NCBI GenBank assembly: GCA_964016885.1
Contig: OZ024747.1
Location: 21,886,001-21,950,000 of the forward strand
From: Eledone cirrhosa
Taxonomy: Eukaryota
DNA: 64,000 bases
Reading direction: 5' to 3'
Shown one piece after another: positions 7,999 through 64,000 of this stretch. Each line of letters begins with the position of its first letter. Within the stretch, counting starts at the first letter, position 1. The notes below the pieces were generated by a model. The model was not told the origin of the DNA and searched no databases. It was given only the letters and a program-made list of their open reading frames with translations. Both the position numbers and the translations under genes were made by a program.

Positions 7999-8197
7999 GA
8001 ATAAGGAAAAGCGAAGTAGTTTCAGATGTTCAAGTCCTTTAATAATAATGCTGTGATATATATTTCACACCATTATTATTAAAGGACTTGAACATCTGAA
8101 ACTACCTCGCTTTTCCTTATTCGATATTTACTCCGTCACTCCTATGTGGAAAAAGTACGTTGAGTGCTTGATTTGAATTGCATCAATATTTACCCTA
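7999..8197 (+). mobile_element. Fold-back PLE-terminus-like element with tail
   Basis: Near-perfect palindrome 7999-8122, then tail TATTTACTCC...GTTGAGTGCTT, then (TA)n. Confidence 0.6.
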
Positions 8198-9423
8198 ATA
8201 TATATATAGTTAAAAGAATAGAGGTGCAACACACAAGTTATTATATATTGGTAAACGGAATAGAAAATGCTGACAAATTGTTCACAGTTGAAAAATGGTT
8301 TAATTAGGAATAAAAGAGTATTAGTAATTGTATGGGTTAGTATTCAGTTGTGGTTTTAAGTTTTTAAGTTTTTACCGGTTGCGCATTTCTAAATGCTTTT
8401 CAAAAATAATTTTGAGATAGAGTGTCCGTGTTGTTTGCTCTGATCTGATTAGTTTTGGGAATTCTACCTGTTTTTATGTTAAAAAAGTGGCTCCAGCGCT
8501 ACTTTGGTGTTGCAAAAATTCTTGTGGTCAAAACAATTTTGATTGGTCGGTAGAGGTCATGTGAATGTAAAAAATTGATTTTGCACCAAGACTGTTTTTA
8601 TGTTAAAAAAGTGGCTCCAGCGCTACTTGGTGTTTGCAAAAATTTTTGTGGTCAAAACAATTTTAATTGGTCGGTAGAGGTTATGTGAATAAAAAATTGG
8701 TTTTGCGCCAAGATTGAGAAATGACTCTTTCACAACAAATATGTGTGTGTGTGTGTGTGTGTGTGTGTGTGTAGTAGTAGTAAGGTGCTCGATGTTGTGA
8801 TAATGGTTAGCAGGGATGTGTGTCAAATGGCTATTAAGATAAGTGTGTGCGTGTGTGTGTGTGTGTGTGTGTGTGTATATAGCAGAGTAATTCGTGGTAG
8901 CAGGGATGGGCAGTAAGAATGTGTCTGTAAGCAATGGGGGGTATTTTAGCATGTCAAAAGATATTTTTCAGCTTTTGTCTTATACGGAGAAGTGCGTGTG
9001 TGTGTATAAGTCTCTTTGTATGTTAATGTACGCGTGTGTATGTGTGTGTGTATATATGTGTGTGTGTATGTGTGGGTGGACCAGTATTTTTTTCCCCCTG
9101 GTAAAATGGTGTACATTATTCGATTTTTTCAGTAAAATCGGTTCTCTTAATAGAACATCAAAAATCTTAACAATAAAAGGTGTGAAATGATATTCACTAT
9201 ATATATATACACATACATATATTCACTATAAATATATATATATATATATATATATATATATATATATATATATATATATATATATATATATATATATACA
9301 CATATTTTTTTTGTGTTGCACCATAGAGCATGTGTGTTTACGTATGTTATTGTGTTTATATGTGGGTAGAGATGTGTGCTGATGTAGGTATGTATGTTGA
9401 CGTGTGTATGTTGTGGGTTCGTC

Positions 9424-11571
9424 TTAGGGAGAAGTGTTTAGACGGGGTCCGTATTTGTTAATGAAGTAAGATTCCTTGCTGATGCGCTGGGTGTGGGTGG
9501 CATTATCTTTAAATTTGTAGAGGGGAAAGATTCTGAAGTTGGGATGATTTTGGGCGGCACAGGTATCAATGTGTTCACTCAGTGGTATTTTCCTGTATTC
9601 CCGTATTTTAATTTGGGATCTATGGACAGTCATGCGTTGGCGGAGGCTGTTTTTGGTCTGGCCTATGTATTGTTCTCGACAACCTGAGCAAGTTAATACA
9701 TATATTAGATTTTCCGATGCACATGTGAAATTGTGTTTTACTATAAAACGTTGTCCTTCTTTGAAATAGAATTCCGAACCCTCTATTAGGTTGATGCAAA
9801 TGCCACAGTTGGGTCTATCGCATTTTTTTACTGTGGGTTTCGTTGTTGCGGTTGGCAGTACTTTGGCATGTGTTAGGATGTTTTTCATTGACTTGGATTG
9901 TCTTTTGCTCTTTATGATATCGTGTGTTCGTAGGATTTGGTTCATTCTATGGTCCTTTTTCAACACATGGATGTTCTGGAGGATGGTGTCAAAGGCCTCA
10001 TTGTTGAGGGGGTTGTGTGTGGAGATGTATGGAAGAGCTTTTAGTTTCGGTTGATTTACTTTAGGGTGTCTAAGGTCCTGGGTACTGAGTTTTAGGGTAT
10101 GTTGGATTCCATTGTCAATTAGTGATGCAGGGTAGTCCCTGCCTATGAGTGTGTCCTTTAGTTCTTGTAGCCGTAAGTAGCAGATGTTTTTATTGGAGAC
10201 TATAGTACAGATTCTCTTGGCTAAGTTGTAGGGAATATTAATTTTAACGTGTCTAGGGTGGCAAGAGTTGAAAGGGAGATATTGCTTGGAGTCTGTGGGC
10301 TTGTAGTATATGTCTGTTTCTATTTTTTTGTTATGGATCTTAATGAGGATGTCGAGGAAGGGGAGTTGTTGATGGCTGTATTCCATCATGAAGTTAATAT
10401 TCGTGTTGAGCCCATTTATAAGGGTGTGAAATTCTTTAAGTTTTTCGATGTTTTCGTGCCAAAGGATGAAGCAGTCATCTAGATATCGCTTCCAGTTCCT
10501 TTCAATGTGTAAGTGGAGGGTGTTTCCAAATTTGTTTAGGACTTTAGTGTAGAGGGTGATTTCCAGGTATCCCATGACTAGGTTGGCATAAGTGGGGGCT
10601 GTTTTCGTTCCCATAGCGGTCCCAGATTTTTGCCTGTAGGGTTTGTTATTGAAAACGAAGTAATTGTTCTCCAAGATAAATTTGAGTCCCTCTATCACGA
10701 ATTCTTTTTTGATGCGTTGTGGGAGTTCTTTGTGGTAATTATCCAGCCAGAATTGGATAGCTTCTATTCCTAGGTTGTGGGGGATGTTGGAGTATAGGTT
10801 GACTACATCGAACGTCACTAGTAGGGTTTGTTCAGAAAGTGGCATATTAGGGAGGTGATTGAGCATATCTAGGTCGTCCCTTATATAGCTTTTGATGTGT
10901 TTGAGGAAGGGTTTGAGAAGGGTATCAATGAAGTTGCTAAGGCGGTGGGTTTCGCAAGCGGGGCCTGCTATTATAGGTCTTAATTTGAGATCATTGGGTG
11001 AGGGGACATTGATGACTATGTCTGTGGCTTCCTTGCATGCCTTACTTATTGATTCGCTTTTATGTACTTTAGGGATACCGTAGAAAAGGCTGGATTTACT
11101 TGTGAAGTCTGTGATGAAGCTGAATTCCTTGTTAGTGAGTCCTTCTTTGTATTGGTTGATTAGAGTTTTTAGGTTTCTCATAATTTTCTGTTGATTGTAG
11201 TGTTCAGCCTTTTCGTAGTATGTTTCGTTTTCCAAAGTGGAGAGCGCTAAGTTGATATAGAATTCTGTCTCCATTAGGACTACTGTACTCCCTTTATCAG
11301 CCTCTTTAATTGTAATGGTTCTGTCGGTTTTTAATCTATTTAATTCTTCCCATTCTTTCTTGTTGAGGTTTGGCTTGTGTTTTTGTCTGTGCAAGTGTTG
11401 GTAAGGGAAGTTTGTGATGTGTTCACAGAATTCGTCCAGGATTTTATTTCTACCTTTTGAAGGGGTGTAATTGCTTCTATTTCTGGCTAATGATTCATCC
11501 TCATTGTACTGGTCGAATAGTTGTTCACTGAGTCGTAACTTTCTACAGAAGTCTGTGATGTCTTCCTTCAT
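9424..11571 (-). CDS. PLE reverse transcriptase + GIY-YIG endonuclease (C-terminal part of the element ORF)
   Basis: [42 protein letters not shown]; Cys linker [17 protein letters not shown]...YIGQT; in-frame upstream LSKGLKFTPTP. Confidence 0.93.
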
Positions 11572-63097: not shown

Positions 63098-63608
63098 CTG
63101 TTGACGAAGAAGGGTTTCTCCCTGCGTACGAAAGGCCTGTTGTATGATGCCTGTGTGAGGAGCGCGATGCTGCATGGTAGTGAGACATGGGCAGCTACCG
63201 CAGAAGATATGCGACGGCTGGAGAGAAATGAGGCAAGCATGCTCCGTTGGATGTGCAGTGTATATGTGCGTGAACGACCCAGCATAAATGTGTTGAGAGA
63301 GAAACTGTGTCTGAGAGGGATAGAATGTAGTGTACGGGAGAGGAGACTGAGGTGGTATGGACATGTGATGCGCATGGAGGATGACCGATGGGTGAAGAAG
63401 TGCAAGGAATTGCCAGTTGAAGGAAGACGTGGTAGAGGTAGACCACGAAAAACATGGGCGGAGGTGGTGAGAACAGACCTCAGATCATTGAAGCTCACGG
63501 TGTAGATGACGAGGGACCGTGACGAGTGGAGAGATGCTGAATAAGACCTGTCCCACCCTTGCAAGCAGGGAAAAACGGACGTAAAATGATAATGATGATG
63601 ATGATGAT
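63098..63608 (+). mobile_element. RTE LINE 3' fragment
   Basis: [27 protein letters not shown]...RGRPRKTW; ends GGACGTAAAA(TGA)n. Confidence 0.9.
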
Positions 63609-64000
63609 ATATAAAACATGAGAAGAAAGAAGAATACTGCGTGGTTTGCACATAGGTTACATATGATAAAAATAGTCCTTCGTCAGTGATTTTCCAACCA
63701 TCATTGGTATTTCATCGCATTAAAAATCAGATACCTCAGGTTGGTGCGAGCAATAACTAAAAAAAGTTATTGGGACCAGAATTCGCGTAAGGCGAGGGGG
63801 ACAAGTAAACAACATAGAAGGATAAAAGCAAAGGAAAATGTATGACCCCGACGGCAGAGCTCAAGCCGTTTCGACGGCTATTTCTGGACTAAATTCAGTC
63901 CAGAAATAGCCGTCGAAACGGCTTGAGCTCTGCCGTCGGGGTCATACATTTTCCTATTACCCACTCTACTACCCTAAACATTGAGTACTCTGGTGCGTTA

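Follow-up and report, generated by a model that had tools for sequence, protein, structure and literature searches.

Truncated Penelope-like element ends, non-coding tandem monomers and a candidate start-site hairpin in a 64-kb stretch of the Eledone cirrhosa genome

The stretch of Eledone cirrhosa contig OZ024747.1 analyzed here (assembly GCA_964016885.1, positions 21,886,001 to 21,950,000; 64,000 nucleotides of a 3.0-Gb genome), which we call the window, carries some 21 to 23 insertions of the type made by Penelope-like elements (PLEs). This bears out a preliminary description, made from the sequence alone, that had put their density at about one per 3 to 4 kb; PLE mobilization, high copy number and diversity, which it had also proposed, are supported. 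Very probably, the insertions are truncated ends of coding PLEs together with non-coding monomers moved by PLEs, with their fold-back shape being a by-product of insertion and not a replicating double ribozyme. An inverted pseudo-long terminal repeat (pLTR) plus a tail is the textbook PLE plan. The headline architecture is mostly known, as truncated PLE ends and retrozyme-like parasites; the candidate new part is a hairpin at the start site of Hydra-type elements that these parasites share.

Families are lettered by their position in the window: A (17489), B (23460), C (33168), D (39832), E (40439), F (54130), G (7999), H (24001), I (40223 and 63831), J (49289), K (34008), and P (8202-14050). 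The Eledone genome was searched with each family, and the best 20 to 30 loci were inspected with 1.5-kb flanks. The first look gave 2,605 candidates for A, 1,622 for B, 181 for C, 1,955 for D, 866 for E, 1,991 for F, 979 for G, 2,189 for H, 217 for I, 1,828 for J, and 2,313 for K. The families for which coding sequence was found lie as follows.

8202 to 14050, minus strand: family P, a full-length young coding PLE overlooked in the preliminary description, with a 958-nt inverted arm (14050-13094), a 331-amino-acid frame (13057-12062), a 784-amino-acid frame with reverse transcriptase (RT) and GIY-YIG domains (11778-9424), the 3' arm, a 40-nt tail, and (TA)n.
23460 to 23987, minus strand: family B, apparent truncated 3' end of a coding PLE; hammerheads 23712-23672 (minus) and 23775-23833 (plus).
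53455 to 53805, minus strand: second copy of B, hammerhead 53651-53607 (minus); a third fragment lies at 31875-32033.
33171 to 33611, plus strand: family C, apparent truncated 3' end of a Hydra-type PLE; hammerheads 33272-33202 (minus) and 33417-33481 (plus), tail hairpin 33529-33553.
39832 to 40196, plus strand: family D, apparent truncated 3' end of a Hydra-type PLE with a long 3' untranslated region (UTR); hammerheads 39940-39875 (minus) and 39992-40057 (plus), tail hairpin at about 40107-40126.
32069 to 32177, minus strand: stump of D with a hammerhead.
40223 to 40413, plus strand: family I, apparent Hydra-type PLE end truncated inside stem II, with stem III and the cleavage site retained; tail hairpin 40341-40364.
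63832 to 64000 (plus), about 61650 to 61790 (minus), and 33876 to 33998 (plus): other copies of I.
40439 to 40643, minus strand: family E, apparent minimal fold-back of a Hydra-type PLE pLTR; hammerheads 40573-40521 (minus) and 40574-40628 (plus), tail hairpin 40500-40482.
54130 to 54471, plus strand: family F, apparent Hydra-type PLE end folded back and lacking a tail; it has the core boxes, but its stem I is unpaired.

A family was taken as linked to a coding element where PLE coding sequence lay directly upstream in the sense direction with no TA run in between. This was the case at 11 of 25 B loci, 4 of 20 F loci, 2 of 25 C loci, and 1 of 25 I loci, with further links for C via locus L136 and for I via L199. 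Family D showed a PLE frame at none of 25 loci directly and at 9 of 20 after one upstream step (along L137). For E, none of the first 55 loci had such a frame, which was found later in L412, L442, and L443, where the order is hammerhead, tail, open reading frame (ORF), UTR, hammerhead. Wider loci confirmed the coding frames of C (L136), B (L413), F (L417), and I (L418). Hence, RT followed by GIY-YIG lies upstream of the pLTR in B, C, D, E, F, I, and P. The Hydra-type frames give weak Pfam matches but are backed by tblastn and by 613 homologues. The E frame has DKT and RWR motifs; the CxCx5C linker occurs in C, E, and F, and CxxC/CxH surrounds the last endonuclease (EN) motif in C and E, while D and I are tied to the C protein by tblastn at 33 to 57% identity. 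All the Hydra features (DKT, an RWK-like motif, a CxCx5C linker, no CCHH, and a (TA)n target) are thus present in E, and the linker in C and F. We therefore read C, D, E, F, and I as Hydra-clade PLEs by their motifs (D and I by similarity only), whereas B and P have a CX4CxxC linker of the Neptune/Nematis type. The inverted 5'-truncated copy, the optional tail, and partial tandems recur across all families, and B, C, D, E, F, and I are, judging from sequence, 5'-truncated ends of coding PLEs.

The 784-amino-acid frame of P matches RVT_1 (3.7e-07) and GIY-YIG (2e-06). The 144 scored copies are 97 to 99% identical, and many keep this frame; the descriptor found no canonical hammerhead in 8202-14050. 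Elsewhere in the genome P forms tandems of about 4.7 to 4.8 kb. Another coding PLE family, with a short, Penelope/Poseidon-like linker, stands in inverted arrangement in L416 (302-2122, minus; 2050-4148, plus).

In the remaining families the sense-upstream search found no PLE frame: 0 of 30 loci plus 0 of 30 position-ordered rows for A, 0 of 20 for G, 0 of 20 for H, 0 of 25 for J, and 0 of 25 for K. Their copies in the window are the following.

17490 to 18180, plus strand: family A, inverted arm, sense arm, and 115-nt tail; hammerhead 17931-18010, tail hairpin 18072-18095.
31317 to 31456, minus strand: diverged stump of A; hammerhead 31453-31372 with compensatory changes in stems I and II.
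48495 to 49266, plus strand: partial tandem of A with one full period; second core degenerate.
7999 to 8199, plus strand: family G, fold-back stump that has lost the core by truncation, from a non-coding hammerhead unit repeated in tandem every 1,303 nt; tail hairpin 8130-8165.
24001 to 24822, plus strand: family H, partial tandem of a 616-nt unit; reversed half-core, 40-nt tail, no tail hairpin.
49292 to 50066, minus strand: family J, one full 541-nt monomer with a SINE-like (short interspersed element-like) repeat inside (49334-49520); hammerhead core at 49821.
49568 to 49544 and 50026 to 49987: hairpins of J, one behind each putative RT start site.
34008 to 34676, plus strand: family K, fold-back of a 534- to 551-nt tandem unit; half-core only, 68% like H; a relative lies at about 63590-63830 (minus).

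Family A is a closed monomer of 521 to 532 nt, in which reading upstream re-enters the tail of the previous unit. It has 2,267 exact 24-mer matches genome-wide, and partial tandems (direct repeats of 528 to 532 nt) stand at 12 of its 30 top loci; one array holds 15 units. The period of G is 1,303 nt in two of eight wide loci (L478 and L481), with a longest stop-free frame of 72 codons; such frames reach 72 to 90 codons across A, G, and J. J copies form 541-nt tandems, lie on many chromosomes, and are 98 to 100% identical. Repeats of 613 to 616 nt occur at 3 of 20 H loci, and direct repeats at 4 of 25 K loci. A, G, and J are retrozyme-like, being non-coding head-to-tail monomers with a type I hammerhead, as in non-LTR retrozymes. 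The units of H and K lack a complete hammerhead, their core boxes standing in reversed order without stem II (window copies at 24001 and 34008), and these two families, which appear to behave as PLE-moved tandems, are not classed as retrozymes. All five are likely moved by the same PLE enzymes. The preliminary description had seen independent non-coding families throughout, while naming the 3' ends of coding PLEs as the finding that would speak against it; independence fails for B, C, D, E, F, and I, which run into a PLE frame, and stands, in the loci sampled, for A (17489), J (49289), G (7999), H (24001), and K (34008).

Two further tandems were seen outside the window. A family M (L136:1-4642) is a 421- to 424-nt tandem of at least eight units with a complete type I hammerhead and no tail hairpin. 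At a single locus, L440 (G000:C1:67880300-67882000), a 221-nt tandem joins the E pLTR, tail, and ORF start by internal deletion and is a retrozyme at birth.

Using a strict type I hammerhead descriptor (core, stems I to III, and UH site) together with a core-motif scan, we located 12 distinct loci in the window, against one match of the strict descriptor in 30 order-2 Markov shuffles (mean, 0.03). No hammerhead stood among the best 150 of 293 Rfam covariance matches (143 weaker rows lie outside that list). RNAfold z-scores of single ribozyme arms were weak (-1.5 to +0.1) except at 23775 (-3.4). Type I hammerheads are present in window copies of A, B, C, D, and E and in genomic copies of G and J; F, H, and K fail the descriptor, and I is partial. 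Mirror hammerheads, claimed for every locus, pass at 23460, 33168, 39832, and 40439 but not at 17489 and 54130. At 17489 the sense arm alone passes, although its cleavage position is occupied by U and its stem II is mismatched at the base, and the inverted arm fails because a core base is altered; at 54130 both arms fail because stem I is unpaired, as it is in the 12 genomic copies listed. Isolated core boxes at 28070-28031 (minus) failed the stem test.

The described plan of (TA)n, fold-back arms, and a tail on only one of the two arms was found at the positions described, save that the 7999 element is flanked on its left by a (GAT)n run. Inverted arms pair 17487-17666 with 17888-18067 (97%), 33165-33269 with 33417-33521 (99%), 39825-39952 with 39980-40107 (96%), 54128-54263 with 54333-54468 (95%), and 34003-34204 with 34435-34636 (95%); further inverted-arm spans are 23516-23991, 40220-40335, 40500-40648, 7996-8125, and 63832-63955. 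At 23460 and 40439 the sense arm is the minus strand and the tail lies on the left. Short palindromes between TA runs at 62871-62954 and 21457-21530 are probably stumps of another PLE-type family.

Each family has two fixed 3' ends, both abutting (TA)n, and the interval between them is the tail. In contrast, head-to-head junction points are scattered between copies, and the tail can sit on either arm. This combination matches the in vitro behavior of an Anolis PLE, for which cutting and extension of both strands, two internal RNA starts, and an uncleaved RNA template have been reported (PMC11167929; cited, like the other sources here, for the portions accessible to us). The cleavage site was rejected as a 5' boundary, since none of the three families checked accumulates 5' ends there (A, with 25 and 29 ends; J, with 21; G, with 20). 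Since these ends ignore the cleavage site and copies continue into the previous unit, the non-coding monomers would be copied from uncleaved multimers or putative circles. Single insertions that mix families (L111:1492-1762, E and I; L137:6165-6300, I and D; L283, H and B; L468, J and B) suggest template switching. Such junctions are rare, at seven against about 287 same-family head-to-head junctions, and with J and B among them they do not establish a common machinery.

The tails of otherwise unrelated families have a hairpin in common, starting 6 to 16 nt downstream of the putative first start site. Two of the four base pairs in its lower stem are invariant, 2 nt bulge out on the 3' side, and the upper stem-loop varies freely in sequence and length. 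It is present in 29 of 30 tails of A, 20 of 25 of C, 21 of 25 of D, 25 of 25 of E, 20 of 20 of G, and 23 of 25 of I, compared with 1 to 4% of shuffled tails. In F it was found at 7 of 20 loci, most F loci stopping before the tail, and one listed match is off pattern; the three matches among 25 B loci all differ, and H has none in 20. The second start site, too, is followed by the hairpin in A (23 of 29 copies that continue), J (17 of 21), I (one of two), and C (one of six, namely the copy that continues into the ORF), and in G by a one-pair variant. No hairpin was found behind the start sites of B, H, P, and M. Between families the upper stems vary in sequence and length and still pair, and the outer pair of the lower stem alternates between A-U and G-C. 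By eye, the published consensuses, as far as accessible, contain it in Hydra-2_Amil, Hydra-2_Ajap, and, twice, Hydra-1_Ajap. Likely, the tail hairpin marks where RT starts, and its position at the start sites of A, G, and J means that three non-coding families carry a Hydra-type signal. We put at about even the chances of the wider proposal, that the hairpin is a deeply conserved start signal of the Hydra clade, common to elements of coral, sea cucumber, and the present genome, and that retrozyme-like parasites of 0.5 to 1.3 kb survive by having two copies of it. A search of the literature on PLE tail hairpins and cephalopod hammerheads yielded no description of the motif; subscription papers and bioRxiv supplements, the latter of which may list related motifs, lay outside that search. 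A lone match to the tail-hairpin pattern lies between TA-rich runs at 39293-39330 (plus).

Family E adds a second kind of fixed end. In the window copy the first base of stem I opens both arms (40572 on the minus strand, 40576 on the plus strand), and an extra G stands before each of them (40573 and 40575). Among 30 position-ordered rows drawn from 8,515 exact matches, 15 start within a few bases of this position and 15 have a long upstream UTR; in the long copies there is an initiator-like match at the first base of stem I, and a TATA-like box lies some 30 nt before it. Exact patterns genome-wide gave a templated pair before stem I in 5,096 cases, G in 1,206, and A plus T in 295. Stem I self-complementarity explains 63 of the 1,206 Gs, and among 20 A/T loci 7 proved to be long copies that have mutated. 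Thirteen G loci were read; at three of them (L427-L429), a lone G stands between a TA/GAT simple-repeat flank and the element. These data suggest that minimal E copies are likely capped-RNA run-off products from a promoter-like start in the pLTR. With RT starting internally, the "full-length" product would cover no more than the initial 135 nt of the transcript. An initial view of E as a stand-alone 136-nt element (55 of 55 loci by full-length match or junction pattern) was abandoned given the upstream UTRs of the unbiased rows and the ORF linkage, and a guessed junction pattern for an E circle had no matches. Templated E matches number 3,811 on the plus and 1,285 on the minus strand, so that with balanced strands about 2,570 would be dispersed; the plus excess of about 2,526 probably stems from a large tandem array derived from E, with about 2,500 units, for which the 221-nt tandem, with two matches only, was rejected as the origin. 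In family B, 6 of 24 5' ends fall at one position, behind which there is a YY1-like motif; I and F show looser 5'-end clusters. In L302-L328, (GA)n precedes the E 5' end and (TC)n follows the shortest E 3' end, as if RT stutters at template ends.

Taken together, insertion could proceed as follows. The GIY-YIG endonuclease would cut both strands in (TA)n, the target seen in the flanks, as in the Anolis PLE assay (PMC11167929). Each DNA end would then prime RT within the element RNA at one of two fixed starts (three in E), leaving one arm with and one without the tail. In the Hydra-type families and in A, G, and J, the bulged hairpin 6 to 16 nt downstream probably binds or positions RT. The two cDNAs would stop at variable points and join head to head, often via a few shared bases, as the variety of junctions indicates. 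On a capped transcript from the pLTR promoter, RT would probably run off after about 135 nt and copy the cap as the extra G, generating the minimal E palindromes.

Several observations weigh against parts of this reading. The last start site of E has no hairpin behind it (0 of 12), single hairpins fold weakly, with the proposed structure being the minimum free energy fold in two of five cases, and covariation was judged from tabulated hairpins. Hydra-1_Crog has the hairpin only in part, and two of the six published consensuses (Hydra-1_Amil and Hydra-1_Obim), read by eye in the accessible material, are without it. The Hydra-clade assignment is motif based. The extra G could derive from the inverted arm in 3 of the 13 G loci read, and a 5'-end cluster in C was rejected as a start site since all seven loci read show microhomology. 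Mixed-family junctions do not confirm a Hydra-only partnership, since J joins the hairpin-less B. Sampling took the best 20 to 30 of 180 to 2,600 candidates, so that a coding parent, if rare, could have escaped detection for A, G, H, J, or K, as happened at first for E.

The hairpin might alternatively be an inherited relic or a signal acting on the endonuclease or at the DNA level, with the pile-up of E ends reflecting an RT stall or a preferred joining site at stem I. We regard this as possible but doubtful. The tail of Drosophila virilis Penelope is required for EN recognition (as cited in PMC11167929), stem I does provide microhomology in the 63 cases above, and the bare last site of E fits such a view. 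However, pairing is retained despite sequence change, the distance to start sites varies within narrow limits, A, C, I, and J have the motif twice, and the excess of G is eightfold per base, which favors the hairpin as a start signal and the G as a cap copy.

Less probable still, and in our judgment unlikely, is that A, G, H, J, and K are pLTR-derived satellites spread mainly by tandem expansion of DNA, their dispersed copies being passive stumps of an unsampled coding parent. Local amplification is the explanation preferred in the accessible part of a 2026 preprint (bioRxiv 10.64898/2026.07.22.740005), and long arrays do exist (the 15 units of A and the plus-strand excess of E). The long A array shows no greater similarity among its own units than is seen between loci (94.5% versus 94.1%). 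In the few loci compared for signs of a rolling-circle origin, identities were 96.7% within L007 and 99.3% within L460, against 94.1% and 98.0% between loci. In contrast, dispersed partial tandems bear fresh PLE marks (two fixed ends, tail, inverted arm, and TA flanks) and continue through the tail into the previous unit, and the nearly identical copies of J are spread over many chromosomes, all of which argues for movement of these monomers by PLEs. That all families are independent non-coding double-hammerhead fold-backs in which the palindrome itself replicates, as the preliminary description proposed, is very improbable: most copies are short and without nearby ORFs and a few E junction types recur, but junction points are otherwise scattered, many copies lack the inverted arm or have the tail on the truncated arm, continuation into PLE ORFs refutes the idea for B, C, D, E, F, and I, and opposite-strand hammerhead pairs 100 to 700 bp apart were interpreted as truncated PLEs as early as 2014 (PMC4209133).

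The window holds other repeats as well. An RTE-like long interspersed element with APE, RT, and PHD domains lies at 4361-7453 (plus), with fragments at 987-1631 (minus) and 63100-63600. Long tandem arrays with periods of about 51 nt and 40/80 nt occupy 35142-38337 and 41962-47936. An abundant SINE-like repeat of about 170 to 190 nt occurs at 19272-19435, 20141-20329, 28252-28425, 29970-30143, 47968-48127, 49334-49520, and 60915-61107, and a tRNA-like Rfam match (46.8 bits) at 20623-20692.

The architecture had been thought possibly undescribed in this lineage, but it is published, and for octopus species PMC8557442 lists both Hydra and Naiad PLEs with (TA)n insertion sites, one Hydra family being given for O. 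bimaculoides. The reading of H as a Naiad end was rejected, as the RT joined to it in L283/L284 belongs to family B. By eye, octopus Naiad 3' ends in the accessible part of that paper's supplement have a reversed half-core similar to that of H. As for the movers of retrozymes, PLEs have so far only been proposed in the accessible text of PMC7229834 and of the 2026 preprint, which argues that retrozymes are PLE derivatives, and the portion of PMC11167929 seen leaves the start-site motif undefined. Because this genome contains both coding Hydra-type elements and non-coding parasites that are young, along with a short RNA structure common to the two, the link can be tested in vitro. If our proposal is true, the hairpin would be the first defined cis signal tying the retrozymes of animals to a PLE enzyme that can be named, and it would offer a portable tag with which any RNA could be inserted by PLE priming. 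Likewise, the E result would give a simple reason for the tiny hammerhead palindromes that litter many genomes.

Compared with the Hydra-clade EN+ PLEs of Craig et al. (2021; PMC8557442, as far as accessible), the elements agree in the C-terminal GIY-YIG, the DKT, RWx, and CxCx5C motifs, the canonical hammerhead, the (TA)n target, 5' truncation, the inverted upstream copy, and the tail. They differ in comprising five families with hundreds to thousands of copies, in long 3' UTRs, in tails of 65 to 150 nt against 30 to 40, and in the shared tail hairpin. From the hammerheads of PMC4209133, in the part available, nothing essential differs: both are type I with a palindromic short stem III, an extra base after A9, and many families per genome, while those found here have longer stems II and, in most families, possess a stem III. 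For full-length L1 and SVA insertions an untemplated G has been described as a cap copy (PMC4859970), and E resembles them in having an additional G where a fixed 5' end follows a promoter-like site, although, unlike there, the E product would be only the start of its transcript. The Anolis Poseidon PLE (Frangieh et al. 2024, PMC11167929) likewise has two internal starts defining the tail and a binding determinant 3' of the start; there, an AC-rich stem-loop contains the start, whereas here, in another clade, each start is closely followed by a bulged hairpin. Finally, animal non-LTR retrozymes (Cervera and de la Pena 2020, PMC7229834; Li et al., bioRxiv 10.64898/2026.07.22.740005) are similarly head-to-tail non-coding monomers with one type I hammerhead each and a proposed PLE origin and mobilization. 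In contrast to those published, which in the accessible portions measure 51 to 972 nt, the monomers described here measure 525 to 1,303 nt, H and K are without a full ribozyme, and PLE insertion marks combined with a Hydra-type RNA signal provide anatomical evidence, from sequence alone, of the probable partner.

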